A DNA stretch of 64,000 nucleotides from positions 1-64,000 of IMG/VR virus record IMGVR_UViG_3300028603_000022; one strand, 5' to 3'. A program made the position numbers and the translations under genes. Of the stretch, positions 14,656 to 53,479 are shown in pieces (position 1 is the first letter of the stretch; every line of letters begins with the position of its first letter). Origin of the DNA: a virus. Its lineage: Duplodnaviria; Caudoviricetes. The notes beneath the pieces are model-generated. The model was not told the origin of the DNA. It saw only the letters and a program-made list of their open reading frames with translations, and did not search any database.

Positions 14656-14673
14656 TTGCTTGGCTGAAGGTCG

Positions 14674-14683
14674 TTTACGGTCA
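14674..14683 (-). promoter_or_regulatory. TGACCGTAAA motif upstream of the transposase
   Basis: Identical to the motif before several phage replication genes, on the coding strand. Confidence 0.45.
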
Positions 14684-15000
14684 GGAATATTGTATTTGGA
14701 TCGAGTCTGGGCTCAACGCATATTATGCAAATAAATCAATTGGTTACGTGTAATTTCGATTCGATCTGGCTTGACTTGGATTCATCATTCTGATATATAG
14801 ATCAATGCCGCTTGGTCGCGGCTGACAGCGAGGCCATCCCATGTCGGGTGGCCTGCAAAATACAACACCCGACATCCGTGGGCGCGGAAGCGTGCGCGGG
14901 TGGGGAAATATGCAGGGCATGTTCCAGCCTCGCTGTCCATGCGACCAACCACCTGACGCCAGGTGGAACGGTGAAACTTGGTCGCAAAGATGGGTGGGGC

Positions 15001-15432: not shown

Positions 15433-16028
15433 GAAAAGTCGCTATATCAATTATGTTTCTTATCCAGTCTTGCATTCCTTCTTATTCCGAAAGCCCGCTT
15501 GAAATTAACTACGGAAAATGGAGTCTTTTTATAGGATATAAGAATCAATTACCGCACTGCATAATGAAAACACATCAAGATTCCATCGACATATCAATTA
15601 TGTATACCGCGGATTACGTAAGAAGTAATTGGATCAAGCATTATATAATGGAATTTGATTCGACCAATATTAATAGTTGGTCTGGAGAGATAGAAATTGA
15701 CTTTAGATTCTTGAGCGACGCCGTTCAAGCCAAAGGACATAATAATAACGGAAAGATAGTCGTCGCAGGTGATAATTTTGATAAGATGGATGATTTTTTA
15801 AATTTGTTTTTTCGGCATAGTTTGATGGGGGTTGAATTTCATAACACGTATATACCAAAAAAGCAGATTGATATAGGTGGAACCATTAATATGAAGCGCT
15901 CATTCGAGTTCTGCGTCGGGATTGTAGATGAGTATGGGAAGCAGATTATTATCTCACCGGAGCTTCATCTAAAGAATTTCTTGATAGACAGCTCGGAAGG
16001 GAATCTTATTCATAGATACAAGGAATAG
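15429..16028 (+). CDS. IS passenger, putative exported protein
   Basis: Signal-peptide-like N-terminus, then YGKW...C; ATGA overlap with the previous gene. Confidence 0.6.
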   Translation: MRKVAISIMFLIQSCIPSYSESPLEINYGKWSLFIGYKNQLPHCIMKTHQDSIDISIMYTADYVRSNWIKHYIMEFDSTNINSWSGEIEIDFRFLSDAVQAKGHNNNGKIVVAGDNFDKMDDFLNLFFRHSLMGVEFHNTYIPKKQIDIGGTINMKRSFEFCVGIVDEYGKQIIISPELHLKNFLIDSSEGNLIHRYKE

Positions 16029-25659: not shown

Positions 25660-27945
25660 ATGCGAACAATCAAGAACGTCACTTTGGCTTCCAATAAAAC
25701 AGGAAAGAGACTCTTTGTTCAAAAGGGTTCGGCTGGTTCTGTTGCTGAAGATTTCGCTGTAAAGTCCGCCGGCGAACCTTCTAAACAAACCGTTGGCGTT
25801 CTTGGTAATCGTACAGGTAATACATCTTCTGATAACTATGATAGAGTAGAATCGCCTTTAGATAAAATAAAATCTAACAAGGTTTTAAGAGACAAAGCTT
25901 CTCGTAGGCTGGATACTATTGATCCTTATTCTTCTGAAGCTGTAGAATTATCTGCAATAATAGGATCAGAAGATACGACAACAGTTCTTGATAGACATAA
26001 TAGAGCTGTTGAAACAGCAGATGAGCTGCCTGCTATGGGTTCTAACGCTGGTGGACTGTCTGGTAATCTTCCTTCTAGTTCTACAGTTACCGACGTAGTT
26101 ACTAGAGGAATGCTAATAAACGTAATTGATGATATTATCTACGATAAGAATCCATACAGAGCTAATATAGCTCTGAACCGCATTCTTCGTGATATGTTTT
26201 ATCATGATTCTACTACGGGATCAGCTGTTAATCTTCTTAGCACATTACCATTCTCGGAATTTTCTCTTTCAGGTTTGAAAGACGAAAAGATGACTTCTGT
26301 TTTTGTCGATTCTCTTGAGTCGATGAAAATTAACGCTCTTCTACCTAATATGTCCATTGATTATCTGGTAGTTGGTTCTGCCATTGTGTCGCTTACTTAC
26401 GACGAAAAGATAAAAAGATTTACAGGTTCTTTTCCACATAATATTGATTTTGCTTACTTCATTCAGGTGCCTTCTTATGGTATAGATCCTATCATCAAGG
26501 TCAGATTAGAACCACATATTGCTGGGGCTCTAGAAAACCCAACTATTAAAGAAAAATATCTACAATACATTCCTAAGCAGATAGTCGATTTTTATTCAAA
26601 GGGTGGTAGAGACGGAAAAGGTGGCGGTGATGGGTTTGAACTAGACCCAAAGACTTCTATCTTTATTGCGCGTAATGGTACTCTTAGAGATTTCCGAGGT
26701 ATCTCTCTCTTGAAAAGAGCTATACCAGCTTGGTTATACGAGAAAGCTCTTATTAAAGGAACACTGGATCAGTCTTATAAGCGTCAACGTCCTATTATGC
26801 ACGTTACCGCCGGTGAAGGAGAAGAATGGGTTCCAGTTACCGAGGAAATGCAAGCTATTTCCAACATGTTTCTAGCAGCAGACCTCGATCCTCTAGGAGC
26901 AATTGTTGTTACTAGGCAAGGCGTCAATGTAAATGAGGTGCGAAGCGGACAGGATTTTTGGAGATGGGATCAGAACTACGACGCTATTGAAAGAATAAAG
27001 CTTCGCTCTATAGGTATTTCAGAGTCATTTGTGGCTGGTGACGCCGCGTACAACAGCCTTGAGCAGACTATTTCTGTTTTCATGGATCAGATTAGAGCTT
27101 ATCGTAATCAGTTTACTTCTGAAATTTTCTATGAGAAAATTTTTCCCATGATTTCAGAAGCTAATGGTATTACTAAACAAAGATATGGTATTAAACGAGA
27201 TAGAGAAGTAGCTTCATACGGTAATACCAGAATTTATAGAGACGAAGATAATCAGATCGTAGCCAGTATTGGAAATTCGTATCCGCAAGTAAAAGAGCTT
27301 GGGGCATTATCTAAATCAAACGTAGACGTAAGCCGGTTAGTTGTACCAGAAATCCTCTGGCATAAAAGATTGATGCCTGAAGCTGATGAAGCTTACATTA
27401 ACATGTTGGGTGCTCTTCATGAAAAGGGAGTACCTATTACTATCCGTCAATGGACAGCTGCCGGTGGCTTGAATCTTGATAACCTACTTGAAGACTTAAA
27501 CGAAGATCTAAGAGTACGTGAGCAGATTGTCAATTACAGAAAATCTATTACTGACCTAATGAAAGAAGCCGGTATGGGGTCAGAAGAAGAAGATCCCGGT
27601 AGTTCTTCTCAAGCTTTTGGTGAATTTGCTTCCTCTAGTTCTCCTATATCCAGAGCCATAGATCAGATGGTTAACGATAGGTTTAACATTGGTTCTGTAA
27701 GGAAGCGCTCAATTCTATCTTATGGTAATCCAGATCATCCTAACGCTAATTTTACTGATTATGATTCTCAAGGTAATCGCAGAGTTATGACCAAACAAGG
27801 TCGTGATATTATAGCTAACAGGTTTACCAAAAATCTGGCTAAAGCTGCCGCTGAAATGGCTAAACTGGAAAACAAACGAACTAAAGAAGAAGAATGGCAG
27901 CGTAATCAAAGGCTAGATAAGAAGAAATATTATCATAGCAAATAA
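25660..27945 (+). CDS. Portal protein
   Basis: 761 aa at the start of the head module; RDMFYHD..GSAVN, RGISLL and GISESFV portal-type patterns. Confidence 0.7.
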   Translation: MRTIKNVTLASNKTGKRLFVQKGSAGSVAEDFAVKSAGEPSKQTVGVLGNRTGNTSSDNYDRVESPLDKIKSNKVLRDKASRRLDTIDPYSSEAVELSAIIGSEDTTTVLDRHNRAVETADELPAMGSNAGGLSGNLPSSSTVTDVVTRGMLINVIDDIIYDKNPYRANIALNRILRDMFYHDSTTGSAVNLLSTLPFSEFSLSGLKDEKMTSVFVDSLESMKINALLPNMSIDYLVVGSAIVSLTYDEKIKRFTGSFPHNIDFAYFIQVPSYGIDPIIKVRLEPHIAGALENPTIKEKYLQYIPKQIVDFYSKGGRDGKGGGDGFELDPKTSIFIARNGTLRDFRGISLLKRAIPAWLYEKALIKGTLDQSYKRQRPIMHVTAGEGEEWVPVTEEMQAISNMFLAADLDPLGAIVVTRQGVNVNEVRSGQDFWRWDQNYDAIERIKLRSIGISESFVAGDAAYNSLEQTISVFMDQIRAYRNQFTSEIFYEKIFPMISEANGITKQRYGIKRDREVASYGNTRIYRDEDNQIVASIGNSYPQVKELGALSKSNVDVSRLVVPEILWHKRLMPEADEAYINMLGALHEKGVPITIRQWTAAGGLNLDNLLEDLNEDLRVREQIVNYRKSITDLMKEAGMGSEEEDPGSSSQAFGEFASSSSPISRAIDQMVNDRFNIGSVRKRSILSYGNPDHPNANFTDYDSQGNRRVMTKQGRDIIANRFTKNLAKAAAEMAKLENKRTKEEEWQRNQRLDKKKYYHSK

Positions 27946-33073: not shown

Positions 33074-34417
33074 TTGTTGGCTACTTGGTGGAAAAATCTT
33101 TCTTTGGATGAAAAGAAAGCTTATCTTAAAGAACACCCTAACTCGAAAAAGAAGATTTCTACGCCTAAAAAGGTTTCTTCCGGTGGGAATGCCCAACCTC
33201 GACGTAAACTTTCTGAATCTGAAAGAGAAAGAGCTTTAAAATATTTAAAAACTAATGGGTATACTGTTAAGCAAGCAGTTTCTGGTTCTTTAGATGAAAT
33301 GCAACGCAATTTTGAAACCAAAATTGAGCGTCTAGAAAATAAACAAGTCACTAATCTGTATAATAATACAGTTAAAGCCGTTAAACTAGATTCCAAACAC
33401 GCTATATCTAATACAAAGCAATTATTATCTGTATATGGATTTGTATTATTAGCTTCTGTAGCTCTATCTGTGGTAGTTGGGGCTGATGTATCTACCTCTG
33501 CTGCTCATATAGTTGGTGGATTCGGCGATGAAATTAAAAATCATACTCGCGATGTTATGCAAGAACTTAAAGCTCTAGACGAAGAAGAGGCTCAACAAGA
33601 ATTTCAAAATGACGCTGAGAGGGATAAATATAAAGCAGAAATGGCTGAACGCCGCCGTAGAGCTAAAATAGCTTACCTTAAGCGGGTTCATGAAGATATG
33701 ATGGCTAAGGCTAAAGAAAATCTAGATGATCCCGATAAAGTAACAGAATCCCTTAGAAAATCAGATAAGCCAGTTACTCCATCAGCTAATGTATCTACTG
33801 AAACAGCAAATACTTTTAGAAGCTCAAATATAAAGAACACTGTTATGAAAGAAAAGATTTCTATTACTTCCTCACATGAAACTGATCTTCTTAAAGCTCT
33901 AATAAAGCTAGAGAAGGCTGACATTGAAAGTAAAGAAGACGATTCTCATGAGAATCTTTTAGATCATATTGATTACCTAGAGAGCTGTATACCTACAGCA
34001 GCTACTATAATGGTGGCGTCTATAGGAAAGCCGTCTATTCTTACACGAGCTAAATACATGCTCAACAAGTGTAATGAAGAACTTGCTGCCTCCAAAATCT
34101 TACTTAATAAATCTGCTGAAAAGGCATCACTAAAAAAGTCTTCCTTGGATTTCTTTCTTAAAAAGAATCTTAAACCTAAAGAGTATAGATACGAACAGGC
34201 TTATGTTTTAGATAATGAAGAAATAAAAGCTTGTGAACACCACATACTTAATGGTGTTGAAACAGCTTCTTATACTCATAATAAAATAGAAATATATAGC
34301 TTTGTTGAGGGTAATACGATTAATCTATCTTTGGTAAAGGATTCAAACTTTATGCCCAAATCCTTTTCAAGTATTAAACCAAGAGAATTAGCTGCTTGGT
34401 TGAAAGAACATATCTAA
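33074..34417 (+). CDS. Putative internal head protein
   Basis: WW..LS...K.YLKEHPNSK N-terminal module, a hydrophobic segment and several E-x-A sites. Confidence 0.55.
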   Translation: MLATWWKNLSLDEKKAYLKEHPNSKKKISTPKKVSSGGNAQPRRKLSESERERALKYLKTNGYTVKQAVSGSLDEMQRNFETKIERLENKQVTNLYNNTVKAVKLDSKHAISNTKQLLSVYGFVLLASVALSVVVGADVSTSAAHIVGGFGDEIKNHTRDVMQELKALDEEEAQQEFQNDAERDKYKAEMAERRRRAKIAYLKRVHEDMMAKAKENLDDPDKVTESLRKSDKPVTPSANVSTETANTFRSSNIKNTVMKEKISITSSHETDLLKALIKLEKADIESKEDDSHENLLDHIDYLESCIPTAATIMVASIGKPSILTRAKYMLNKCNEELAASKILLNKSAEKASLKKSSLDFFLKKNLKPKEYRYEQAYVLDNEEIKACEHHILNGVETASYTHNKIEIYSFVEGNTINLSLVKDSNFMPKSFSSIKPRELAAWLKEHI

Positions 34418-34429
34418 GGTAATTTCGCT

Positions 34430-35545
34430 ATGGAAATTAACAAAGGTAAGCAATATACAATCGGTACAAAGTTCTCCTATAAAGGAGCGCCGGCGGTGTT
34501 CAATCAACCGCCGCTATGGACTATATATACTGAAACAGACGATTCTCTGTTATCACAACCTGCTTTACAGGTAGGTAACAGATGGAATGCGGTATTCACC
34601 ATACCTACAAACTATATCGTACCAAACGGTAAAGAAGATTTAACCATACAATTTCATGGTACTGACAGCAAAGGACGTACCTACGTAGCGGATAAACTAT
34701 TAACTATTTTTGATAACACAGAGTTTTTTACACCTAATGGGGTGTTTTTTAACTACATAACTGATGAAAGTATAGAAGACTATTTAATAACCAATAGTGA
34801 TGAAGCAGATTTTGATATCCGAATATTTGATTCGTTTGGGGAACAGGTTCAGCATACCTCTCTAACTAATCAAACTGCGGTATCGGCTAACTCTAATGGT
34901 TATAAATATGATTTTAATCTACCACCTTTGGTAATAGATAAGAATGTCTGGCTAGACCCTTTTAATATTGTATATCGTATTACAACAGCTTCTGGAACAT
35001 ATACAGAAACTCATCCACTATTCATTCTAGACTTCAAAGTCATCAATGTAGTTAATGAACTACAAACTATGTTGGATAAATCCAAGCTAATAGAAGTCGA
35101 TCCTTCTCTACAATGGCATAATGTAGAGCTTATTCAAGCTGTTCTAGCAGGAGTAAAAAGGATTAATGCTTCTCCGCCGGAAGTTACTTTGTGGAAGCTT
35201 CACGATTTCCCTAGCGGACTAGACAGGTTTCTTACTATCGCCGCGGCTATTTATTCTCTTGAATCCAGATTCCTAGCAGAAGGTCTTAATGCTTTCGATT
35301 TCCAAGGATTAAACTCACAACTAAACTATAATAGAACTGAATATCTATCTCAATTGTTGGATAGGTATAACGCAGTTCTAGACCAATTACCGCTAGCTAA
35401 GAAATCCGCAATATTAACAAATGGTAAGGGTGAAATAGCTGGTAATGAAGTAGACAAAAGAGTACGTAATATCGGAACATTGGGTCTAGGTGTTAATACT
35501 CTTAATAACCGAATAGGGTATAATCGCTTTAGGCGGTTCTACTAA
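34430..35545 (+). CDS. Putative head-tail adaptor/neck protein with Ig-like N-terminus
   Basis: C-terminal adaptor-like pattern (RINASPP...FDFQG..LNYNR); structural context. Confidence 0.5.
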   Translation: MEINKGKQYTIGTKFSYKGAPAVFNQPPLWTIYTETDDSLLSQPALQVGNRWNAVFTIPTNYIVPNGKEDLTIQFHGTDSKGRTYVADKLLTIFDNTEFFTPNGVFFNYITDESIEDYLITNSDEADFDIRIFDSFGEQVQHTSLTNQTAVSANSNGYKYDFNLPPLVIDKNVWLDPFNIVYRITTASGTYTETHPLFILDFKVINVVNELQTMLDKSKLIEVDPSLQWHNVELIQAVLAGVKRINASPPEVTLWKLHDFPSGLDRFLTIAAAIYSLESRFLAEGLNAFDFQGLNSQLNYNRTEYLSQLLDRYNAVLDQLPLAKKSAILTNGKGEIAGNEVDKRVRNIGTLGLGVNTLNNRIGYNRFRRFY

Positions 35546-35569: not shown

Positions 35570-36361
35570 ATGACTCGTTTAAATAGCAATGTTTATGAGA
35601 AGATTAACGCGCGTAGGGCTACTCGTAACAGTTTCCCTGTTGAGTTACAGAAGATTCGTATGATCGACGTGGCGTCTTCGCGAATCGTAGTTAAGATTGA
35701 TTCAGTCTTTCATGATCGTCTTAATGAGGAGACAGCTTCAGCGTCTATTTCTAGTCTAGGCGTTCGTTACTTACCTAATTCACTGCATAAAGTGTCTATG
35801 ACTGATCCTACTCTGTTTGGAGCTTTCGTAGCGCAGAATCGTGAAACTATGTCTATGGTCGATGCTAAGGAAATGGCATCAGCCGGTACTATGTCACAGG
35901 TTAGTGATACAGTATTTCAGGACACTAATGATAACATCTGGTCTGTAGTTAGTGATGGGGATACTGCCTACCTAGTTAAGCAGCAGGAAGAAGATATTGG
36001 TGCGCTTCTTAGTGCGCAGCATGCTAGGGCAATTGCTACAGCTTCACATTCTGTTAACATGTTTGAGGACTACGGGCCTGGTATTCCAGTTGTTTACTAT
36101 GATACTCGTAAGGAAGAACTTGCTTTCGGTATTGGTGTCTCTGGAACTAGTCTTTATAATCCAGAGTCTAACAAACTTGTAGAAGTAGCGTCTGACTATG
36201 TAGTCGGGGCCTGGGATGGTCGTACAGTAAACACTTCCGAAGTTGCAGCAGCCACTGTTTCAAAAGAAGAAATTCTTGCTTACTACAGCAAACTTTACGC
36301 GCATAACAAGGAATTTCTGGCAGAAATCAAAGACATTATTTATAATGGCGTCAATGTCTAA
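35570..36361 (+). CDS. Putative prohead core/internal protein
   Basis: FQDTNDNIW motif; four E-x-A-S/A sites; GAGGT RBS; followed by a terminator. Confidence 0.55.
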   Translation: MTRLNSNVYEKINARRATRNSFPVELQKIRMIDVASSRIVVKIDSVFHDRLNEETASASISSLGVRYLPNSLHKVSMTDPTLFGAFVAQNRETMSMVDAKEMASAGTMSQVSDTVFQDTNDNIWSVVSDGDTAYLVKQQEEDIGALLSAQHARAIATASHSVNMFEDYGPGIPVVYYDTRKEELAFGIGVSGTSLYNPESNKLVEVASDYVVGAWDGRTVNTSEVAAATVSKEEILAYYSKLYAHNKEFLAEIKDIIYNGVNV

Positions 36362-36364
36362 TAA

Positions 36365-36397
36365 AAAGAGGGTTGGTAATAACTACCAACCCCTTTC
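36365..36397 (+). terminator. Intrinsic terminator-like hairpin
   Basis: GGGTTGGTA...TACCAACCC stem. Confidence 0.6.
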
Positions 36398-36414
36398 CTG
36401 TCAGGAGAAGTCAT

Positions 36415-37968
36415 ATGTTTGATATAAAAAGACTTTTATCCTACGCTTATCCTGAAGCTTTAGTAGAAGTTTCCACAGCTATTAATGGATTAGACCAAAA
36501 TGTGTCTATCTCCAATATTGATAAGGATAATGCTAGGTATTTAACCTCTATTATGGAGGCGGCTGGGTACATTTATCAGGAGTCTGATAAAGAGGTAGCT
36601 AACCTTGGAGTTTATGAATTTACCAATGTAAGCCTTTATGAAGATTTAATCGAAGAAGCAACTATGGAGGATGGTAGTGAACACGAAACCGATTATATTG
36701 AGGATAATGGATCGGACTTTGCTGGGAGTGAGTTGTCTAATTCTGCTGTTACATCTATTGACGGAGATGGTAGGGCCTTCCGCGTATTAACTAACCCTGA
36801 AATGCACAAATTCGCCATGAAAGTTTATACCGGAATGCTCGGTAATAACGAAAACATGGCGAATTACGGTATTTTTGCATATGACCTAGATAATTTCTTG
36901 TCTATGCATCAGAATACTAATACATCTTTTGACGATGATGAAGAAGAAAGTGGCGAAGACGAAAGTATTTCCGTACCTGAATCCGCCTCTATTCTTACCG
37001 TAGCTGAATTAGCGGATACTCTATTTAACGCTAATGCTGATGAGTTTCTAACTGTATTCGGTAAACATATACCAGAAACTGCTAATAATAAGTTTATCGG
37101 TAAGATTATTCTAGGTATTCTAGTCAAGGTTGTAGGAGGAGCTGTAGGTAAAGCCCTTCTTAATGCTTGGGAACGTAGAAACAAGGGAGCTTTTGAGCGA
37201 ATACTGTTTAGTATAGTTTCTATTATAGTCAGAGATTGGTTCCCCGAAGAAGCTTATTCTTACAAGTCTGACGTGCAGAAGTATAAGGAATATGAATTTG
37301 ACGATGACTATAAGTACGACATTGATCTGGACGACTATACCGTAGAAAAGGCCGAAGCTTTACTAGAAAGTGAAGGCTTTGTAGAAGGTTCAGAAGTTGC
37401 TCTAAGCCCCGCTTCTATCGGTATTCTTAGACTTCTTATAGCAGTCTTTATTAAGATCATGGCTGGCGCTCTAGGTCGTATGCTTATTGATACTTGGATC
37501 AAGAGAGATAAGAAGCGATTTGAACGCACCTTAATGTACTTCATGTTAGAAGCTATCAAGTACGTTCCTTTCAAGAAGTACATGGAATCAGCTTCTGTAG
37601 AACTATACGATGATGGTCTTCTCTTAGATTACGCCAATTTTACTGATGAATCAGAAATTGAAGGTTCTGAAACGGCGCGTAAAAAGAAAGAAAAGACTGG
37701 TAGAGGGGCGTTACTTAGTGCTCTTATGCGAGCTATGTCTGGTGATACTGGAGATAGAGCAGCTAAAGCCTGGGATAATGGTGACATGGACGCCATGGTT
37801 GAAATCATGGGTAGTGTTACTGAAAAAGTCCTAGAATCTATGCCTTATGATGAAAGTAACGATGATTCTAGTGAAGAAGAGCCTGATTCATCGGAAGTTG
37901 AAACTACTGAAACTACTGAAACTACTGAAACTATTCCTGATACTACAAGTCAAATAGATGACGTGTAA
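36415..37968 (+). CDS. Acidic polyprotein-like head protein with repeated amphipathic modules
   Basis: ATG at 36415 after AGGAG; acidic spacers alternate with three related basic/hydrophobic helices bounded by E-x-A. Confidence 0.7.
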   Translation: MFDIKRLLSYAYPEALVEVSTAINGLDQNVSISNIDKDNARYLTSIMEAAGYIYQESDKEVANLGVYEFTNVSLYEDLIEEATMEDGSEHETDYIEDNGSDFAGSELSNSAVTSIDGDGRAFRVLTNPEMHKFAMKVYTGMLGNNENMANYGIFAYDLDNFLSMHQNTNTSFDDDEEESGEDESISVPESASILTVAELADTLFNANADEFLTVFGKHIPETANNKFIGKIILGILVKVVGGAVGKALLNAWERRNKGAFERILFSIVSIIVRDWFPEEAYSYKSDVQKYKEYEFDDDYKYDIDLDDYTVEKAEALLESEGFVEGSEVALSPASIGILRLLIAVFIKIMAGALGRMLIDTWIKRDKKRFERTLMYFMLEAIKYVPFKKYMESASVELYDDGLLLDYANFTDESEIEGSETARKKKEKTGRGALLSALMRAMSGDTGDRAAKAWDNGDMDAMVEIMGSVTEKVLESMPYDESNDDSSEEEPDSSEVETTETTETTETIPDTTSQIDDV

Positions 37969-39693: not shown

Positions 39694-42600
39694 ATGGAAG
39701 CGATTAACGCTGAGCGTAGTGATTTTGAGACTGAATTTCAGCTACCTGAAACTGCTGCTCGCCGCCCCAATGTAGGAACTAAATTTACATCTCCTATGGA
39801 GATGGTTAAGAAGAATCTTTATGGTATAGTTTTGAACGCCAACGCCCTATTCCGTTTAGGAATTATGGGCTCGCTGCTCAATGACCAGATGAATGAGGAA
39901 TTTTCAACCATAGACATGTCAAATGTCATTGGTTTCGATCTAAGTCCTTATGCTCAACCTATTACAGCGGATCGTCTACGAGAAACCGCGATGGTTAAGC
40001 CTGGAAATGGTAAATCCAAGCCTATTTCCATCGAATTTACTGAATCGCTGTTCAACATCGGTGGGGAAATTGTAGAGCGTATTATGAAGCTCTATCCAGA
40101 AGGTATTGATAAGGGTATTACACTATCAGCCTTCTTCCAACATATATACAATATGAACATAAGCGGTACTGTAATGACCGCTTTAACACCTTCTCTAGAC
40201 ACTTTCAAAGACACTTACCTAGACCCGCTAGATGATTTTGTAGAGTTCAAAATCAAGATTGTTACCCCTGAATACAGCGAATCAACCCACACAGTTAATC
40301 TAGATTTTACGCTTTCTATTGAACTAGAAGCGGATATTTATCCAGAAGTAATCGATTCAGAAGAATTTTCTGCGTATCTTGTTTACCTTTGGGTTTACAA
40401 TTCCTTACGTCTTACAAAGAATCGCCTTAACAAAATCGTAGACCCTCGTAAGGTGTCTGCGCATAAAAACTCTATGCTAAAACTTGGACCTATCAGACCT
40501 AAAGTAAATAAGTCTGGTTTTGCTATCCATGGTTCCGGTAATCCTATTTTCATTCCCCCTACTAGGGATATAATGGAGCAGTTCATTAAAACTGCGAACT
40601 CATGTATTGATGAGGACGGTGTATTCCGTAGGGACTTTCTTGTAGATGAGCATAAACTAGGTGACGCAATCATCTACGTAGACTGGGTAAACGATATTCT
40701 AGCGTACACCACGTCAACAGGCATTCTTTCTACGTACAACCTAGGCGATGTTGCTCCCTTTGACCCTGTTACAGAATATAACTTCCTTTCTACCCCGCTT
40801 AAATCCAACTACCTCATGCCAATCACCACTATCCTGACAGAATCGTTTAAGGATATAGAAGGTGAGAACGCGGCGAAATTTACCACGAATGAGGAAGTAA
40901 AGCGTATTCTTCGTGATCTTCCAGCGGTTCGTATATATACTAATATAGTTAACGCTACCAACGCTTCTGACGCTATTGATGCGTGTTTGTACCATGTATG
41001 CGGCGGACAGCTAGACGAGCTAGAAGATACACCAGGCCTAATAGAACTGGTTATGGCGCTTAAGTGCTTAATCAAATATCTCAATGAACTAAGGAAGTCA
41101 GACAAGGAAGCGCTTAAGCTTCCTTCTAGTATGCGTTCACAAGGTATTATTCATCGTCTTATTGGTGTTGAGTACGTACTACGAGCTATTGATAAGTATG
41201 ACGACAAAGTTATTGAGACCTATCGTCAAGCTTGGAGAACAGAAACAGCTAAATTCAAATCTGACCCCTCTGTTAGAACCTTCGACATCCCCAATATCAA
41301 AGTTGGTAAGGGTGGGTTAACTGGTCTTCTTCCACACCAAGGCCGTATTCTATCTTCTGCGATTAAATCACCACAGCAATCTATTAAGTCGGTCAGCACT
41401 GGGGGAGGCAAGACCATCATTTCCATAGTTCAATCGATTTTTGGTATTGTGAATACCAAAACGATTCCTATGATTCTTACTAAGGCGAATCTTATTCGTG
41501 GAACTATCACAGAAATTAATCAAATTTGTAAGGGTGAAATCAATGCTATTCCGTTTACACCCATTACACTACGTCGTATGGCCAGAATTTCTGGTATTGA
41601 TACTTTTGCGAAGCTGTTAAAGTGGTATCAAACTCTACCTAAAAACACCATCTTGGTTGGTAGTTATTCATCACTGGCTTCTAGACGAAAGCTATACTCC
41701 GATCTTGATATCGTAGATGGTTTCTGTGAGTTCTCTGTACCTACTACGCAGTTTATGCTTATTATTAAGCTTCTTGGTATCAGGTTCGTATCTGGTGATG
41801 AAAGTCACATGATTAAGAACCCTGAATCAGCGCGTTCTAGAAACAGTTACGCTATCTTCTCCCACGCGGATAACCGCGATGTTATGTCAGGTACAATTGT
41901 TTCTAATACCGTTCCTGATCTTGTAGGGCAGTCTAGAGCTATATCACCCTATATCTTTGGTGACGATCCTGTAGCCTTTGCGGATAGGTACGGCCTTAGC
42001 GCTGGTTTGATTAAATCAGATGCTGACGCTAAGAAGATTAAGGATCGTCTTAAGGCTACGGTAGCCTACCATGAGGCTAACGAAGAAGACTGGGCCTACA
42101 TGCTACCAGCGATGGACGACGAGATCATGTTTGCTAATATGACTCCTCTCCAACATGAGTTCTATAACCTTCTTATGCAAGAAGCAGAACTTATGCTAAT
42201 TGAACTGGAAAAATCCAAGAAAAAGATTAAAGCAGAAGAAGATGACGACGAGGAAGATGAAGAAGACGATGATGAAGGTGACAACGCGGATGGTGATGAC
42301 GAAGAAGAAGCTCGAATTGTAGCAGCGGCAAAGGTTCATCTACAAAAAGTAGAAATGTTCCTTGTTGCGCCAGACTCCAATGAACAGTATATGCAATGGG
42401 AACGTAAGCCTTCTGGTGAAGACCTAGTTTCTCCCAAAGTTCGTGAAGCTGATAAACTTATCGAAGCCCACGTATTAAAACATCGTGATGACCTACCTAA
42501 TAATAAGGTAATCGTGTTCGGTTGGAACATAGTATCCGCTGAACACTTTATGCGTCATAGTAAGTTCGCTTCCAAGTCCCTTCATTACACAGCTGGTAAT

Positions 42601-44247
42601 GAAGAAGTGATAAGACAGTTTGAAACTAACCCAACTAATATTATTCTATGCGCAACGGAAGGCAGCGTTCGAGAAGGGCTAAACCTTCAGATGACTTCGC
42701 TCATCTGCCGTTTGCAGAGCGTTTGGTCGCCAGGGGAACATAAACAAGTACGCGCTCGTATGTATCGTCCTGATCCTCGTGGCAAGTACAACCGCGATTC
42801 AGTTCGTCATGTCTGGATCATGACTCGTCTACCTAACAACCAGCCTACACTAGACGGAGTTAAAATCGCTCGTCTAGTGTCTAAATACGTATCTAATGCT
42901 AGACTTACCTATGAAGGTAGGATGGAATGGCGTAGGGTTTCCGCTGAATTTGACGAATTGAAGATGTTGAAGATGAACCTTCAACTTATCTTCCATTCAA
43001 GAGATTACGATCTGGAACCTTATTTCCAAGCTTGGAAGACATATGTTAATTGGGAAAAAGACCTTAACAAGCAAGCTAAGCGTAGGATGGCTGAAAAGCT
43101 TGAACAGGAAAACGATGTAGACCTGTTAGACGATAAAGGTAATATTACGGACATTAACAAGTTCATTCAGCTTGCTATGTACGGTGTAGAGTCTACTTAT
43201 AAGATTCCAGGCTCTAAACGTGTCTACGTACCGTTTATTCGTAATGCGTTGCCAGCTGACCCTAATAACTATGGGTTTTCTGTTCTAGGTAATAACGATA
43301 TTCCAGTAGGGACCGTTATATACACTGAATTTGGACCGGCTGTAGTTAAAGCTTCTATGAAGAAGGCCGTGAAAGTTCAATTGTATAATGGCCGTACCGT
43401 GTCTTTGAAAAAAGGTACTGTTCACGTAGCAGCCCCTTCCAAGTACAAGGAGTTCGCTAAAGTAGTTAAAGACCCGGTTAAGTGGCGTAATGAGTCCTTC
43501 GATCCCCACGGTGTTAAGGGTCTAGCCAAGGTAGAAAAAACCAAGATTAAGGATGAAGAAGAAGTTATCGAGGCTCTAGAAGATAATCTAGAGTCCGAGG
43601 ACATGGATGAAGTTGAAATCTTCGCCGGTATGCTTAACAGTTGGCCAGCCCTTATTATCGATGAAGATATTAACGAATTGAAAAATCTAGAAGGCTGGAA
43701 TCGTATTGATCCGTTTACTTCTATCACTTTCCGTAGCTGGGCTGCGGCAGAAAAACTGATCGAACTCCTTGACAGTAAGATGCATATTTCTGATAAGGTA
43801 TATGATGCTCTTATGGAAGAAATGGAAGAAATCCGTGAAGGTAAGGCTATGAGACTTACCAAACAAATTAATCCTCAAAAGTTTAGAAACTTCTTCCTAG
43901 ATCAAAAGAAGCGTCTTGGTAGAACCAAAAATGGTAAGGTCATCGTCAATCCTTATTGGATAGTTAACGATGAAAAGGTTCTTCTAGCGTTCGACACAAA
44001 CAGTCACGATCCCAACTTTATTTCTTGGTTGAACCGCAACAGAGCTAAATTCCCCGGCGTTGTCAAGATTACTAAGAACGACGCTATGTGGATTAACATA
44101 TTCAAGTCTGTCCGTGAAGCTATGCAAGACCTCAAGAACCTTACCAAGATAAGGTCTATCGATGTTGAACAAATTAAACGTGATCTGGTAGATGTTAAGG
44201 ATGAAATTCTTAAATTGAAGCGCCCCCGTAGTCGTCCTAACATGTAA
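39694..44247 (+). CDS. Large SNF2/SF2 helicase
   Basis: LLPHQ, STGGGKT, DESH, MSGT, NKVIVF, EGLNLQ, Q..ARMYR. Confidence 0.9.
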   Translation: MEAINAERSDFETEFQLPETAARRPNVGTKFTSPMEMVKKNLYGIVLNANALFRLGIMGSLLNDQMNEEFSTIDMSNVIGFDLSPYAQPITADRLRETAMVKPGNGKSKPISIEFTESLFNIGGEIVERIMKLYPEGIDKGITLSAFFQHIYNMNISGTVMTALTPSLDTFKDTYLDPLDDFVEFKIKIVTPEYSESTHTVNLDFTLSIELEADIYPEVIDSEEFSAYLVYLWVYNSLRLTKNRLNKIVDPRKVSAHKNSMLKLGPIRPKVNKSGFAIHGSGNPIFIPPTRDIMEQFIKTANSCIDEDGVFRRDFLVDEHKLGDAIIYVDWVNDILAYTTSTGILSTYNLGDVAPFDPVTEYNFLSTPLKSNYLMPITTILTESFKDIEGENAAKFTTNEEVKRILRDLPAVRIYTNIVNATNASDAIDACLYHVCGGQLDELEDTPGLIELVMALKCLIKYLNELRKSDKEALKLPSSMRSQGIIHRLIGVEYVLRAIDKYDDKVIETYRQAWRTETAKFKSDPSVRTFDIPNIKVGKGGLTGLLPHQGRILSSAIKSPQQSIKSVSTGGGKTIISIVQSIFGIVNTKTIPMILTKANLIRGTITEINQICKGEINAIPFTPITLRRMARISGIDTFAKLLKWYQTLPKNTILVGSYSSLASRRKLYSDLDIVDGFCEFSVPTTQFMLIIKLLGIRFVSGDESHMIKNPESARSRNSYAIFSHADNRDVMSGTIVSNTVPDLVGQSRAISPYIFGDDPVAFADRYGLSAGLIKSDADAKKIKDRLKATVAYHEANEEDWAYMLPAMDDEIMFANMTPLQHEFYNLLMQEAELMLIELEKSKKKIKAEEDDDEEDEEDDDEGDNADGDDEEEARIVAAAKVHLQKVEMFLVAPDSNEQYMQWERKPSGEDLVSPKVREADKLIEAHVLKHRDDLPNNKVIVFGWNIVSAEHFMRHSKFASKSLHYTAGNEEVIRQFETNPTNIILCATEGSVREGLNLQMTSLICRLQSVWSPGEHKQVRARMYRPDPRGKYNRDSVRHVWIMTRLPNNQPTLDGVKIARLVSKYVSNARLTYEGRMEWRRVSAEFDELKMLKMNLQLIFHSRDYDLEPYFQAWKTYVNWEKDLNKQAKRRMAEKLEQENDVDLLDDKGNITDINKFIQLAMYGVESTYKIPGSKRVYVPFIRNALPADPNNYGFSVLGNNDIPVGTVIYTEFGPAVVKASMKKAVKVQLYNGRTVSLKKGTVHVAAPSKYKEFAKVVKDPVKWRNESFDPHGVKGLAKVEKTKIKDEEEVIEALEDNLESEDMDEVEIFAGMLNSWPALIIDEDINELKNLEGWNRIDPFTSITFRSWAAAEKLIELLDSKMHISDKVYDALMEEMEEIREGKAMRLTKQINPQKFRNFFLDQKKRLGRTKNGKVIVNPYWIVNDEKVLLAFDTNSHDPNFISWLNRNRAKFPGVVKITKNDAMWINIFKSVREAMQDLKNLTKIRSIDVEQIKRDLVDVKDEILKLKRPRSRPNM

Positions 44248-44275: not shown

Positions 44276-46075
44276 ATGTCAAATTATAAAGATTTTGTAT
44301 CTAGACAACTTGAGAGTATGGAGGTAGCTAGTCTACCTCCTACTCAATATACTAAATTAGGAGCTTATCTTCTTGCTAAAGGATTGGTAGTTTTAGCTGG
44401 TAATGGGGAAGGTAAAACCTACGCGGAACGTAACGCCGTCATAATGAAGGATTTGTTGAATCCAAGGTTCACTAAGAAATACGCTATACCAGAGAATTTT
44501 CATAAGTTTGACCCCTCTGGACCTGCTCTTTTTGTTAAGCCTCTTAAAGAGGCTATAAAAATTATGGTGGAAGACCCTAAAGTATCCGCAGAAGAAGCTT
44601 CTCTTTTGAAATTCGCGGTCAACTTTATGGAGAACCCTTCTAAGACTCCTAACTATATAGAAAGAGCTAGAAAACACGCTGCTACTATAAGTGCTGCTTA
44701 TTATCGGAATTTTGAGAAAGTAGTTGGTAAAATTCAAGGTTCTACATCTGGTAATAAGTCAAATATCGTAGATTTACAGAGACAATTATCAGAGTTAGTA
44801 TCAGAAATTACAGGCAAGAAAGCTAAACCAGACGTTCTCAACGTACCTAATACTACAATTGTAGAAATGAGACGTTCAGGTGGGGACAACCTAGATAAGG
44901 CACGCCGATACGCTCAAATGCGTAGGGAGTTAGGAGCTTCTTATGATAAAGACCTAATAGGTTTTATCTCATCAAAGAATCCTAGTGTAGTAAAAATTCA
45001 AGACGCTTATACTTATATGGATAAGCTAGGGTATAAGATACATAAGATACCAAATGTAGCCAAAAGCATACCTCTTAAATTAGGTATGTCGCTAGGTAAA
45101 CCAAAGTTTTACACTGGTGATGACCGTCCTATAGCGCAGAATATTCCTTCTAATGCTAAAGATATCAAACTATCACCTAGATACGACCCTAAAACAGGGG
45201 CTGGAGGTTATCTAACCTATACTTCCGATGTAGCTGCAGGTATTACTAGGGTATACACAGAAGCCCATCAGAATCAATCAGCTTCTAAAATATCATCTGA
45301 CACCCAAGCTGTTACCACTAAGATGACTTCTGTGTTGTCTAGATGGAAAAAGGATTTAACATCTACTGATCCCATCAAGAAGATGGGCGCTACCGCCTCT
45401 GTCATGATTTACATGACAGCTATGCGAGTTGGAGCTAGACAGACTACAGCGGCAGCTCAATCTGGTGTAGCTACCTACGGAGCTATATCCCTTAGACCTC
45501 CTCATATAATTCTACGTAAGAATAGTATATTCCTTAAATATAAAGGAAAGGCAGCTAGTAAAACAGGACTGGAGCAGCAACATATTATTAAAGTTAATCC
45601 TGCTGATGGTCTTACTAAGCGAGTCTATCAGAATCTTGAAAAGCTTATGGCAGGGAAGAAGAAGACTGATCTTGTCTTCTCTGTCCCTAATAAGAACAAA
45701 AATAAGAAACCTGTTGTTTTAACGTATGCTGCCTATATTCAGTATCTAAAAGACTCCGGTTATCCCGCTGGACCGCATAAGATGCGTAGAGTTCGCGGTA
45801 CTAACCTAATGATCGATCTTCTAAAGAAAGAAAAGTTCAACCTTTCTGTTAAAGCTTCCGGTAATCTTTCTAGGTCGCAGAAGGAAGGTGAACAGTTTGT
45901 TATTGAAAAGATTCTAACTCCTATTGCCATCTTGTTAGGACATAAGTCCGGTACAGGAGCTACGTTGTGGCGTACTACCGTGAAAAGTTATGTCGAAGTT
46001 AAGCCTCTTATTGACTTCTTCCAGAAGCAGGGTCTTAGAGCACCGAAATGGCTTCCGAAGAAGGCGTCAGATTAA
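44276..46075 (+). CDS. DNA topoisomerase IB-like protein with N-terminal extension
   Basis: MRVG, TYGA..L, YKGK, HKMRRVRGT, LGH...KSYV catalytic pattern. Confidence 0.75.
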   Translation: MSNYKDFVSRQLESMEVASLPPTQYTKLGAYLLAKGLVVLAGNGEGKTYAERNAVIMKDLLNPRFTKKYAIPENFHKFDPSGPALFVKPLKEAIKIMVEDPKVSAEEASLLKFAVNFMENPSKTPNYIERARKHAATISAAYYRNFEKVVGKIQGSTSGNKSNIVDLQRQLSELVSEITGKKAKPDVLNVPNTTIVEMRRSGGDNLDKARRYAQMRRELGASYDKDLIGFISSKNPSVVKIQDAYTYMDKLGYKIHKIPNVAKSIPLKLGMSLGKPKFYTGDDRPIAQNIPSNAKDIKLSPRYDPKTGAGGYLTYTSDVAAGITRVYTEAHQNQSASKISSDTQAVTTKMTSVLSRWKKDLTSTDPIKKMGATASVMIYMTAMRVGARQTTAAAQSGVATYGAISLRPPHIILRKNSIFLKYKGKAASKTGLEQQHIIKVNPADGLTKRVYQNLEKLMAGKKKTDLVFSVPNKNKNKKPVVLTYAAYIQYLKDSGYPAGPHKMRRVRGTNLMIDLLKKEKFNLSVKASGNLSRSQKEGEQFVIEKILTPIAILLGHKSGTGATLWRTTVKSYVEVKPLIDFFQKQGLRAPKWLPKKASD

Positions 46076-48730: not shown

Positions 48731-49519
48731 ATGTCTGATCTTAAAGAGCTGATTTCCAGCATGATTAGTAGAAATACCAATGACAGCTTGAATAGAGATC
48801 GGGCAAAAGTTAGTCTGATTGAATCCGCGTCATTCGGTACTGAAACTCCTATTGACGCACATAAAACTCCAGAAATAGGTAAACATCTGGAAGTTCAATC
48901 ATGGCTACCTATGGCATCACAGGTCTACAACATATCCCCTAATATCAAGGACTACGTTGTAGTACCTGTGATTATTATGCCTAGCGACCTTCCGAACCGC
49001 AATTCAGTAAGTTTCCCCCATGAGACCTTAATAGGCTTTAATCCTATTCAGGGTCGTCTTAATTATAAGACGTGGGCTGGTAAACCCGCGTATTCTGAAC
49101 ATAACCATTTCAAGATGGAAGAAGCTAAAGGTATTGTTTTCGATACCTATATGTCTAAATTAAACCACGCTAAGGGTAACTTATTTAAAGTGACCGCACT
49201 ATGTGGATTTGATCGTACTAAGGACTATGGATTAGCTCAGGAAATCCTTACTGGTAGACGTAAATCTTATTCTATGGGTGCTTTCGTCTCTCAGTATGAA
49301 TGCTCTATCTGTGGTGATTTATCTAAACGAGGTAAACTTAATACAGAATGTGGCCACGTAATTAGAGGTAAGCCTAAATTCTACGAAACTAAATACGGTT
49401 ATCTTCCTAGTTATTTGTTAGCTCGTATTGGTATTGAAGGATTTGAAGTATCTTCCGTTACTGTTCCAGCTTGGTCTTCTGCTGTGAACTCCAATATTAT
49501 GGATTTAGCTAAGGTTTAA
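48731..49519 (+). CDS. Prohead maturation protease (assemblin/HK97-type fold)
   Basis: PNRN, SEHNH (His), YSMGA (Ser), CSICG..C.H, FEVSSV..PAW; upstream of scaffold and capsid genes. Confidence 0.8.
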   Translation: MSDLKELISSMISRNTNDSLNRDRAKVSLIESASFGTETPIDAHKTPEIGKHLEVQSWLPMASQVYNISPNIKDYVVVPVIIMPSDLPNRNSVSFPHETLIGFNPIQGRLNYKTWAGKPAYSEHNHFKMEEAKGIVFDTYMSKLNHAKGNLFKVTALCGFDRTKDYGLAQEILTGRRKSYSMGAFVSQYECSICGDLSKRGKLNTECGHVIRGKPKFYETKYGYLPSYLLARIGIEGFEVSSVTVPAWSSAVNSNIMDLAKV

Positions 49520-50209: not shown

Positions 50210-51640
50210 ATGCCAAAGAAATTTCCAAAACTGGCGGAGACGCTCAAGGATTGTGCGTTCCCCGTTATGATGTTTCTTTCTACGAGTGAGGTCGCGAGTC
50301 AGAAGACGATTCTTCGTGCGTTCTCTGATGGTAAGGGTTTGAATCTTGTGTCTAACATTGACAAGATTTACAATCCTGTTACTGGCGATCTTCTACCTTA
50401 CATTGAAAAGTCCCAGCAGGAATGTACAGGCGATGACTTCCAACAGCTAGATAATCTAGTGGCTATTCGTACCGATGACGATGTTGTTTTTGGTGTTGAT
50501 ATAGACCTAGCTTTTGATCTTGGTGGTGAAGAAGGTTACTGTCCTCTTACTGGTAAGGAAACTGCTTTTCACTACGCGGAGGCTGCCGATTCTGATACTG
50601 ACGATTCCGATAATGAAGACGAGTTTGAAAATATCGACGATTCTTTAAACTCGGATGAGGAATACTCGGACGATGAAGAAGCTGTTATTTTCAATGACGA
50701 CGAAGCTGACGAAAATAGCGACGAAGAAGAAGTCGTGGCGTCAAATGTTGACACTACTGATTCCGATGATTCGGAAACTGCTTCGGAAGAAGTAACTGCT
50801 GAAGTCCCTGTGGAAACTCCTACTGTCGAACAGGAACCTGTTCAGGAACAGGCTTCAGAAGAAGTAATTAACGATGGCACTGTTCAGGAAATTCCTGCGA
50901 TGGCTATCGCTGACGATGAAGCTAACCTTAAGCTGGTTACTCTTACCAACGATAACAGTGAAATTGCTGCCTTCGTTGGCGAAACCCATGTTGGTACACT
51001 TCGTTGTTCTAGGGCTTCTGAGAAGGCTGCCCCACTGTTCTCTGATGGTAGCCGCCTTGTTCAGGCGTTTAAGCCTGTCTTCAATATGAATCGTAGTAAT
51101 CTGAACTCCTCGGAACTGGCTGCCTACGGTTACACGCCTGTTACTTTCAAGGTCAAGGTTGGCGATTTGTTCAACAAGCGTCTTGAAAAAGAAATAGCTT
51201 CTATCAATACTCAGGCAGAAGAAAAAGTCAAGTCATCTATTAATGGCATGGCCCGCCTTATTGAACTATCCTTCGTTGGTATCAATAAAGGTCTGTTCGA
51301 GTGTGATAATGAACTAGCCAATGAATTAGCGTCTCTACTTTCACGTAATGGTGTAAAGAACGCTAATCGTGAAGTTCGTCGTACTCTTGCGAAGCATTCT
51401 CATGGGTATATTAAAGCAGGCGTGGAAAAGGCTAAGGAGCTTTCTTCCAAGTCAGAAGATTATATCCAAGGTATCGCTGAAACTGTTTCCAAGTCCGAGT
51501 TTATCGGCAGTATCGATGATGATCGTACCGAAACAGCTTCCTATGTTCCACCAGTGTCAACAGTAGAAACAGCGGAGTTTATCGGAAATCCTCAAACTAA
51601 GAAGCCTGTAGTTAACAAGTACGCTAGGCTCTTTCGTTAA
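50210..51640 (+). CDS. Prohead scaffold/core protein
   Basis: Acidic, many E-x-A sites, lies between the protease and capsid genes. Confidence 0.65.
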   Translation: MPKKFPKLAETLKDCAFPVMMFLSTSEVASQKTILRAFSDGKGLNLVSNIDKIYNPVTGDLLPYIEKSQQECTGDDFQQLDNLVAIRTDDDVVFGVDIDLAFDLGGEEGYCPLTGKETAFHYAEAADSDTDDSDNEDEFENIDDSLNSDEEYSDDEEAVIFNDDEADENSDEEEVVASNVDTTDSDDSETASEEVTAEVPVETPTVEQEPVQEQASEEVINDGTVQEIPAMAIADDEANLKLVTLTNDNSEIAAFVGETHVGTLRCSRASEKAAPLFSDGSRLVQAFKPVFNMNRSNLNSSELAAYGYTPVTFKVKVGDLFNKRLEKEIASINTQAEEKVKSSINGMARLIELSFVGINKGLFECDNELANELASLLSRNGVKNANREVRRTLAKHSHGYIKAGVEKAKELSSKSEDYIQGIAETVSKSEFIGSIDDDRTETASYVPPVSTVETAEFIGNPQTKKPVVNKYARLFR

Positions 51641-52408: not shown

Positions 52409-53479
52409 ATGCGTATTAACCACCACCCTACTCCGGTTATTGAGTCAAGGTTTCGTAACTCCAACGATATGATCGTTGGGCGTAACGGTGAAATCAATGC
52501 CGGTTCTAAACAGGAACTTATGCAGCGTCTGGTAGACATTGCCAGCATGATTCAGGACGGTGAAGTCTTTGATTCGGACGGTGTTCGTCAGGATCGTAAT
52601 ACAATCCGTGCAGAAAAGGCTGCGGCCATCCGTGAAGCTATCCATTCTCCTAAGGATTGGGCTGAACTAGGCTCTGCTATCGCGGCAGATATCGACGTTC
52701 GCCTCGAAAGAGACGGTTTCATGCGTTCGGTCTTCTTCCGTGGTGATGTTCAGGAAGGTTCCGTTCCTCGCGTTCGTATCAAGGAACGTCATGTTACCGC
52801 CGTTCGTTCACGCGGCGTTGGGATGATTTATCCGCAGTACGTCCGCGATACGTATCTCTTTGCGGAAGAGTTCTATGTTACTGCAACTCCCCGTGTTGAA
52901 CTTATCGAGATTCATCAGGGTAACAGCGACGTTCTTGAGGAAAAGTATTTCCAAGGTCTTGAACAGATTTTCGTTCAGGAAGACAAGCACGTTGTCAACA
53001 TGATGCGTACTGCTGACGGTATGTACAATGATATTACATACTTCAATGGTACTTGGTCGCAGACTAACCTCGTTGCGGTCAAGGAAAATGTTGACCGCTG
53101 GAGGATTCCGGCTACAACCTGTATAGCAGCCATTGACCTTATCAATGACGCCATCGGCGGTAGCAACTTCTCACAGTGGTTTGATCCGGTTACTAAGTGG
53201 GAAATCATCAAGTCTGGTCGTATCGGTAATCTTCTAGGTATGTCCATTCTTACCGATGGTTATCGTGATCGTAACCTGCAGGTTCTTGAGCGTGGTGAAT
53301 TTATCGTCTGTGGCGCTCCAGAGTTCCTTGGTGCATACACTGATCGTGGTCCGGTTAATGCTACTCCGATTGACGAGTATGAAAAGTTTGTTCCGGCTCG
53401 TGGTTGGTCTCTTAACGAGGTTATTTCGGCTACTCTTGGTAATGCCAAGGCCGTTGCTCGTGGTAAGCGTAATCAGTAA
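52409..53479 (+). CDS. Major capsid protein
   Basis: 356 aa, HK97-like (QEDK, GRIGNLLGMSILTD), strongly biased codon use, followed by a terminator. Confidence 0.8.
   Translation: MRINHHPTPVIESRFRNSNDMIVGRNGEINAGSKQELMQRLVDIASMIQDGEVFDSDGVRQDRNTIRAEKAAAIREAIHSPKDWAELGSAIAADIDVRLERDGFMRSVFFRGDVQEGSVPRVRIKERHVTAVRSRGVGMIYPQYVRDTYLFAEEFYVTATPRVELIEIHQGNSDVLEEKYFQGLEQIFVQEDKHVVNMMRTADGMYNDITYFNGTWSQTNLVAVKENVDRWRIPATTCIAAIDLINDAIGGSNFSQWFDPVTKWEIIKSGRIGNLLGMSILTDGYRDRNLQVLERGEFIVCGAPEFLGAYTDRGPVNATPIDEYEKFVPARGWSLNEVISATLGNAKAVARGKRNQ

Follow-up and report, generated by a model that had tools for sequence, protein, structure and literature searches.

The internal proteins of phage T4 (IPI, IPII, IPIII, and Alt) are targeted to the core by a capsid targeting sequence, trimmed by gp21, kept with the DNA, and injected, and their cargo can be anti-defence. 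Here we describe a gene at positions 36415-37968 of a 64,000-nucleotide stretch of phage DNA (Duplodnaviria, Caudoviricetes; positions 1 to 64,000 of IMG/VR record IMGVR_UViG_3300028603_000022), which is called the window below. The gene encodes a protein of 517 residues (P0001) that contains three related modules, M1, M2, and M3. In our preferred reading, to which we give a probability of about 0.4, the product is a head-internal protein that combines carrier and cargo; it would be cut at Glu-x-Ala (E-x-A) joints, and its cargo would be two hydrophobic, cationic peptides that act at the host membrane. The position of the gene, its family, the homology of the modules, the conservation and enrichment of the motif, and the physico-chemistry of the modules were seen directly and are described first.

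Like the genes of the T4 internal proteins, this gene belongs to a head module. No sequence relation to the T4 proteins is found, however, and the T4 targeting sequence has 10 residues, whereas about 200 residues in several domains would take its place here. The cargo differs as well, being hydrophobic peptides in the present case.

The ejection proteins of phiKZ and SPN3US carry long N-terminal propeptides that are cut at several A-x-E sites (PMC10052503). These phages resemble the family described here in having long propeptides with several sites, linkers that are acidic, a large number of head-internal proteins, and a prohead protease that is essential. They differ from it in that no relation is seen in PHROGs or Pfam and A-x-E is not enriched here. 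Hydrophobic peptide cargo is not mentioned in the SPN3US proteomics paper (PMC10052503). In podoviruses, the ejectosome proteins (gp14, gp15, and gp16 of T7; gp7, gp20, and gp16 of P22) are stored in the capsid, contain hydrophobic segments, exit via the tail, and provide a path across the envelope (PMC8954989). Those are whole, unprocessed proteins of short-tailed phages, whereas the present protein is a protease-jointed chain from a phage with a contractile tail, and no homology between them was found.

The nodavirus gamma peptide and adenovirus protein VI contain a membrane-active helix that is inert in the capsid precursor and is freed by a maturation cleavage. Virus realm, protease, and host membranes all differ from those of the present family, and the comparison is one of analogy only.

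Three related modules and their family

The three modules are paralogous and related beyond chance, because both their pairwise alignments and their scores under a hidden Markov model (HMM) of M3 exceed those of shuffled sequences. Local alignment gave z = 15 for M1 against M2 and z = 6.7 for M1 against M3, with 0 of 2000 shuffles as high in either case; direct alignment of M2 with M3 was weak (z = 2.3). The HMM was built from 60 family members, with 8 orthologs left out. It scored in all 8 of these orthologs, at 14.8-27.8 bits for M1 and 14.5-34.3 bits for M2, and gave 20.3 and 15.6 bits, respectively, in the window protein, while the best of 960 composition-matched shuffles reached 8.8 bits. 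A preliminary description of the locus had regarded M1 and M2 as related and the third module as more diverged, which these results confirm, and the module coordinates it gave are exact (Table 1). M1 and M2 are lineage-specific hydrophobic, cationic duplicates of M3, and M3 is the ancestral domain.

A profile search (hmmsearch) against 1.84 billion representatives yielded a family with 68 members in large uncultured phages, of which 38 matched at E <= 1e-10; Rhizobium phage RHEph12 also contributes a member (QXV74114.1). The window protein matched a second family profile (A2) at E 1.2e-53. The usual layout comprises the N-domain, the central domain, and M3 only, most members having 270-470 residues, and M1 together with M2 is found in only 8 of the 68. 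The invariant or near-invariant residues of the family (R430, L434, M438, and G446) all lie in M3. M3 is also encoded by itself, in proteins 64-98 residues long that begin with the Lys-rich stretch right behind the last joint. Genes with such a Lys-rich start followed by M3 are P0064 (locus L001, 8001-8207), P0057, P0059, P0060, P0065, P0070, and P0071; one stand-alone M3 gene lies between the NAD ligase and topoisomerase IB genes of a 181-kb phage contig.

Pfam (E <= 0.01) and PHROGs assigned no family to the protein, and tblastn of P0001 and two short relatives against 50,697 phage records gave no match. Cultured homologs turned up only in a profile search of whole records. M3-like domains are present in hypothetical proteins of two cultured jumbo phages, Pseudomonas phage PaBG (PaBG_00159; L015, 7710-8153) and Erwinia phage Y3 (Y3_220; L016, 7289-7945), at E 3e-8 and 3e-9, and each of the two genes adjoins a hypothetical gene of about 370 codons (PaBG_00157; Y3_221).

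AlphaFold2, run with a 68-row alignment, predicted the N-domain (residues 1-83), the central domain (residues 121-165), and each module with confidence (predicted local distance difference test, pLDDT, of 76-97 for the modules). The modules share a plan of three helices, namely a 19-residue helix, a Gly kink, an 11-residue helix with a Trp, a turn, and a helix of 16-19 residues. M1 accordingly consists of a hydrophobic helix, the Gly kink, a short basic helix with the Trp, and an amphipathic helix; M2 (pLDDT 85-92) has a membrane-competent helix 1, a basic Trp connector, and an amphipathic helix 3. The N-domain shows the common ferredoxin-like arrangement, with weak fold matches (best Z 6.6). 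The central domain is the most conserved stretch among close orthologs and is matched in most of the 68 members. Linkers at residues 85-114, 171-191, 289-300, 389-423, and 485-517 have pLDDT <50. No confident packing between modules was predicted in the whole protein (predicted template modelling score, pTM, 0.41), and the three modules modelled alone with an 8-row alignment gave a mean pLDDT of 39.5 and a pTM of 0.24. A complex prediction with four copies of M2 scored 0.08 against a mark of 0.42.

Very acidic spacers alternate with cationic modules, as the preliminary description stated, and the alternation is kept in the 8 orthologs, down to 40% identity. Net charges across these orthologs are +3 to +5 for M1, +3 to +8 for M2, -3 to -11 for the spacers, and -8 to -27 for the tail. 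Hydrophobicity was computed for 19-mers on the Wimley-White octanol scale. By this measure M2 has a membrane-competent helix 1, its lowest value being -6.6 kcal/mol (-5.5 to -0.9 in orthologs). Helix 1 of M1 is borderline, at about +1, and values as low as -1.4 are reached over helix 3 (M1 range, -5.3 to +2.7). In both modules helix 1 is hydrophobic (<H> 0.65), has a low moment (muH 0.2-0.3), and looks more like a membrane-spanning helix than a classic amphipathic one, and helix 3 is amphipathic (muH 0.5-0.58). The Lys in the middle of helix 1 (K238 in M1, K347 in M2) is invariant and matches a conserved Lys/Arg of M3. M3 itself is neither hydrophobic nor cationic; its family-wide median on the octanol scale is +8.45, and it is never hydrophobic. 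The earlier term "cationic amphipathic modules" therefore fits the charge of M1 and M2 and their helix 3, but neither their low-moment helix 1 nor M3. The spacer at residues 281-313 is more than a linker, as its Tyr/Asp-rich stretch, including I-D-L-D-D-Y, is invariant in the 8 orthologs.

Melittin combines a hydrophobic helix, a Gly hinge, a Trp with a basic cluster, and an acidic pro-region, and the modules had first been likened to it. The analogy of layout stands, but kinship does not. No Pfam Melittin match was obtained, and the alignment of melittin with M2 (z 4.0, 8 of 2000 shuffles as high) is driven by four identical residues, W-I-K-R. Melittin is made with a signal peptide and a dipeptidase-type pro-region, whereas the modules are three-helix units of 57-64 residues, the N-terminus of the protein is a folded alpha/beta domain, and the spacers are rich in Asp, Glu, and Tyr without X-Pro or X-Ala dipeptide repeats. 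Judged from sequence comparison, the likeness is convergence at most, because the modules descend from a non-hydrophobic phage domain, M3.

The Glu-x-Ala joints

E-x-A occurs 11 times in the protein, compared with 4.9 expected. All but one of the 11 sites are shared by at least 6 of the 8 orthologs; those at residues 221, 327, 391, and 419 are present in all 8, the site at 311 in 6, and the E-E-A at 278-280 (within P-E-E-A) in 1. A comparison of homologs, which had been suggested as a check, thus found M1 and M2 together with four flanking joints in all 8 orthologs. The claim that E-x-A bounds the modules holds at these four joints, but fails at the P-E-E-A end of M1. Cuts at the conserved sites would yield fragments of residues 224-313 (net charge -2), 330-393 (+7), and 422-517, that is, M3 with the tail (-15). 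Only for M2 do these sites give a clean prediction of a cationic, hydrophobic peptide.

The joints are located in the linkers that AlphaFold2 leaves disordered (pLDDT <50), and E48-x-A50 falls inside a folded helix. Across the family, joints recur at homologous boundaries despite a mean column identity of 13%; E-x-A is found near residue 60 in 39 members, near residue 80 in 34, and past the central domain in 25 and 32. Directly ahead of M3, E-x-A followed by a Lys/Arg-rich stretch is present in 53 of the 68 aligned members. A logo of 210 family sites showed 0.13-0.22 bit at each position upstream of Glu, T, V, L, I, or E at +1, and, after Ala, S (33%), K (16%), or A (9%). These preferences point to E-[TVLI]-A-[SKA] as the putative processing signal, and not to the P3-x-Glu of T4/phiKZ-type proteases. 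The residues before the M3-like domain are A-L-A-R in the PaBG protein and E-T-T-S in the Y3 protein, and the protease code of these two phages may differ because these residues are not E-x-A.

The motif was then counted in the genome of the window, where 13 head-internal genes were compared with early genes and tail genes. The head-internal cluster contains 60 E.A, where 23.0 ± 4.4 would be expected (z 8.5), and 34 E.A[SAKRN], where 8.0 would be. The related patterns A.E, [SAG].E, [LIV].E, D.A, E.S, E.G, EA, and E..A were at or below expectation in this cluster (A.E, 17 against 23; [SAG].E, 63 against 62; [LIV].E, 66 against 63.8). E.A was not enriched in early genes (17 against 20.1 expected) or in tail genes (18 against 16.2). 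The phage thereby differs from T4, in which (L/I)-x-E is the signal; here [LIV].E stays at its expected number, and the site logo of the family is empty upstream of Glu.

Other proteins of the head region also carry the motif. A nearby scaffold protein contains 15 E-x-A. The short leader of the SNF2 helicase-like protein (39694-44247, 1517 residues) ends in E-T-A and that of topoisomerase IB (44276-46075) in E-V-A; both leaders differ from those of a 41%-related phage (L005), and E-x-A is kept exactly where homology begins. The SNF2 protein and topoisomerase IB are probably capsid-targeted enzymes.

The head maturation protease encoded at 48731-49519 is presumed to cut at E-x-A. Herpesvirus assemblin sites have the form (V/L/I)-x-A followed by S. 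The present sites are similar in having two fixed residues spaced i, i+2, the second being Ala, with Ser most often next, and they differ at the putative P3, which is aliphatic in assemblin sites and Glu here. A cut after Ala is probably to be favoured over a cut after Glu, at about 60:40, because the fixed residues are spaced like P3 and P1 and the following Ser recalls assemblin sites. A cut after Glu, of the T4/phiKZ type, is judged less likely in view of the lack of conservation upstream of Glu. If true, the Glu-x-Ala code differs from the "cut after Glu" rule of T4/phiKZ-type proteases and could be used to predict packaged proteins.

From these comparisons, the protein is probably head-internal and processed at E-x-A. 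The preliminary description had proposed a charge-masked polyprotein that is matured in the prohead, and comparison supports the prohead maturation; a polyprotein matured in this way is the best reading because of the position in the head module, the conserved joints, the disordered linkers, the enrichment confined to head genes, and the starts of the mini-proteins.

Cargo and the fate of the fragments

A Pfam scan of the 68 members found Acb1, an anti-CBASS phosphodiesterase, in 11 (P0027, P0031, P0033, P0035, P0036, P0038, P0040, P0041, P0045, P0048, and P0050; loci L003 and L004) and SET in 1. Acb1 is C-terminal to M3 in the members inspected, and E-x-A lies between M3 and Acb1 in 11 of 11. 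The family looks like a capsid cargo carrier because Acb1 sits after M3, behind E-x-A, in these 11 members, and the arrangement suggests that anti-defence enzymes are delivered from the capsid by the Acb1 and SET members. An anti-defence enzyme placed behind a protease joint in a head-module protein fits the expectation for cargo that is packaged and injected, for which the T4 internal proteins and the SPN3US ejection proteins are precedents. A wider proposal, which we hold to be doubtful, is that the N-domain, central domain, M3, and Glu-x-Ala joints form a general capsid cargo chassis in tailed phages of this lineage; its payload for the next host may be Acb1, a SET methyltransferase, or, as here, protease-matured, membrane-inserting peptides. 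If so, this would be a phage counterpart of the lytic peptides that non-enveloped animal viruses release on maturation and the first case of capsid-borne membrane-active peptides in a contractile-tailed phage. The carriers would make up a head-internal protein family of large uncultured phages that is new and easy to recognise, and their payload (Acb1, SET, and hydrophobic peptides) would show what is injected ahead of gene expression.

For the window protein, we infer packaging, cleavage, capsid retention, ejection, and membrane action in the following way. The N-domain, central domain, and M3 would bring the protein into the prohead core, where the maturation protease of the phage would cut within the disordered acidic linkers, at the E-x-A joints; until then, M1 and M2 would be kept soluble by the acidic spacers. 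The cargo in this lineage would be the two hydrophobic, cationic duplicates of the carrier's own M3. Once cut, M2 would be a peptide of 64 residues with a net charge of +7 and a membrane-competent helix 1, and M1 may act alike. Acidic pieces would be lost or repelled by DNA, and cationic pieces would be held on the packaged DNA. The peptides would leave via the tail with the DNA, their size permitting passage through the tail tube without unfolding, and would insert in the host inner membrane, where they could open or line the path of DNA entry or depolarise the cell. It is physico-chemistry that suggests membrane activity of M1 and M2; the joint prediction that the protein is head-internal, is processed at E-x-A, and yields membrane-active peptides is tentative, and we rate it at roughly one chance in three. 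If true, it would offer a testable case of membrane-active peptides matured in a phage capsid, with a bearing on how DNA crosses the inner membrane in contractile-tailed phages.

Several points weigh against the proposal of membrane-active cargo. The channel through the inner membrane is usually sought among the tape measure and tail-tip proteins in phages with contractile tails. The C-terminal cut of M1 is not conserved, the fragment between conserved sites being the one of net charge -2, M1 is only borderline for membrane insertion, and helix 1 carries an invariant Lys at its middle. No match to a pore former above background was found with Foldseek (BFVD and PDB), VIA-align (48,161 chains), the ESM Atlas, or a PDB profile search; the same fold and profile searches returned no structural or sequence match to a known head protein. 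All homologs from cultured phages are annotated as hypothetical, and the M3-bearing gene is not among the 14 proteins listed in the PaBG proteome paper. Finally, fragments of propeptides are as a rule lost from the capsid as it matures (PMC10052503), and M1 and M2 could for this reason simply be discarded.

The last point leads to the alternative that survives best, although we consider it rather unlikely. The protein may be an assembly-only component of the core or scaffold that is cut at E-x-A and whose fragments are all expelled before or during DNA packaging, the hydrophobic helices serving only to bundle the protein in the core, without a role in infection. Cargo is absent from most of the family, where the N-domain, central domain, and M3 make up the protein, as would suit a scaffold accessory; the acidic linkers are scaffold-like, and the nearby scaffold itself has many E-x-A. 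However, the 11 Acb1 members and the SET member, with their enzymes behind a joint, make sense only if the cargo reaches the next host. Moreover, M1 (+4) and M2 (+7) are cationic and would tend to stay with the DNA, and a disposable linker would have no need for a duplicated module to keep its hydrophobicity. Should the peptides prove to be no more than scaffold pieces that are thrown away, the finding shrinks to a new family of core proteins.

It is clearly unlikely that the protein remains whole and soluble, with modules that pack so as to bury their hydrophobic helices and with E-x-A as a structural motif in place of a cleavage site. Such packing was not predicted with confidence for the whole protein or for the modules alone, even though the full-length model shows every module as a confident unit of three helices and the weak Foldseek rows are large helical bundles. 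The site at E48 does lie in a folded helix, but the joints are in disordered linkers outside helices, the motif is enriched in head proteins that are unrelated to one another and where variable leaders end, and M3 occurs as a separate gene as well.

Proheads of T4-type phages and SPN3US form on the inner membrane, and the protease is required for their release (PMC10052503). By analogy, the helices might anchor the prohead core or the portal complex to the inner membrane of the producing cell, cleavage then freeing the prohead. We regard this as quite improbable. An essential anchor would be expected more widely than in the 8 of 68 members, all of one sub-lineage, to which M1 and M2 are confined, and the N-terminus has no signal or anchor topology; on the other side stand the insertion-competent helix 1 of M2 and the neighbouring gene at 33074, whose product has a conserved membrane-like helix.

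That the modules are melittin-type toxins with a lytic or antimicrobial action, used for lysis from without, for killing competitors, or as an aid to lysis and not for DNA entry, is very improbable, since the cationic, hydrophobic, and acid-masked peptides with their melittin-like layout and M2 alignment are encoded in the head module and not beside lysis genes, have no secretion signal, and are homologous to a non-hydrophobic phage domain.

The gene and its surroundings

The start at ATG 36415 is preceded by AGGAG at 36403-36407, and the first residues are identical in all orthologs. A TTG start at 36373 was dropped in favour of this ATG on the grounds of the ribosome-binding site and the ortholog starts. 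The parts of the gene and the main features of the head and tail module are listed in Table 1.

Table 1. Coordinates of the carrier gene, its parts, and neighbouring head and tail genes in the window
Feature	Coordinates	Strand	Remarks
Whole gene, 517 aa (P0001): N-domain, central domain, three modules, acidic tail	36415-37968	+	
N-terminal alpha/beta domain, aa 1-83	36415-36663	+	AlphaFold2 pLDDT 89-95; E-x-A at aa 60 and aa 80
Central two-helix domain, aa 115-165	36757-36909	+	pLDDT 92-96; long run of invariant columns
E-T-A joint before M1, aa 221-223	37075-37083	+	E-x-A in 8/8 orthologs
Module 1 (M1), aa 224-280	37084-37254	+	net +4; helices 223-241, 243-253, 257-275
Tyr/Asp-rich acidic spacer, aa 281-313	37255-37353	+	net -6; ends E-K-A (311-313); Y290 and I303-Y308 invariant
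E-V-A joint before M2, aa 327-329	37393-37401	+	8/8 orthologs
Module 2 (M2), aa 330-393	37402-37593	+	net +7; ends E-S-A (391-393); helices 332-350, 352-362, 366-381
E-T-A joint before Lys-rich start of M3, aa 419-421	37669-37677	+	E-T-A-R-K-K-K in the window
Module 3 (M3), aa 422-480, family-wide three-helix domain	37678-37854	+	pLDDT 93-97; not hydrophobic
Acidic Thr/Glu-rich tail, aa 481-517	37855-37965	+	net -14; disordered
Portal	25660-27945	+	phrog_16240, E 3e-131
Head-tail connector	34430-35545	+	
HNH gene, then 1517-aa SNF2 protein, topoisomerase IB, NAD ligase	after gene 36415-37968	+	
Head maturation protease	48731-49519	+	phrog_18299, E 8.6e-68; presumed E-x-A cutter
Scaffold-like acidic protein	50210-51640	+	
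Major head protein	52409-53479	+	
Tail sheath	55367-57613	+	

The source record of the window has 173,848 bp and an estimated completeness of 96% (CheckV), and the gene sits in the head module of this myophage of about 174 kb, which has its own head maturation protease. The head and tail module lies on the + strand, from about 25.6 kb of the window. Within it, the gene is flanked by the head-tail connector and the HNH/SNF2/topoisomerase block, the portal, protease, scaffold, and major head protein genes are near, and the protease gene lies 11 kb downstream. The portal and protease share 31-47% identity with those of the cultured large myophages RHEph12, GR11A, Y3, and Pseudomonas phage PaBG; the protease alone is 39-47% identical to those of Vibrio phage GR11A, Rhizobium phage RHEph12, and Erwinia phage Y3 (40% for RHEph12), and it gave no match to PDB sequences.

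The order of connector, gene of about 260 codons, family gene, gene of about 250 codons, and HNH gene is conserved in three other phages, represented by loci L003/L004 and L005 and by RHEph12. The Acb1 member P0033 occupies the exact syntenic slot, between the connector and a gene for 261 residues on one side and genes for 290 residues, HNH, and 147 residues on the other, and the same order recurs around P0007 and in RHEph12.

The gene at 33074-34417 (+) encodes a head-module protein of 447 residues with 10 E-x-A, compared with 3.4 expected. Its membrane-like helix at residues 117-141 (octanol value -7.9) is kept in the homolog of the 41%-related phage (L005, 6563-7993), and the protein may be a second hydrophobic head-internal protein. 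Between the stop of the gene at 35570-36361 and the start of the carrier gene, a 9-bp GC-rich hairpin (36370-36392) resembles a terminator on both strands, with a weak T-tail. Farther upstream, the stretch at 13849-16028 has a G+C content of 0.44, compared with 0.32-0.39 around it, and may be an insertion element in the phage genome; it includes an open reading frame at 13849-14655 whose product begins like an IS5-type transposase.

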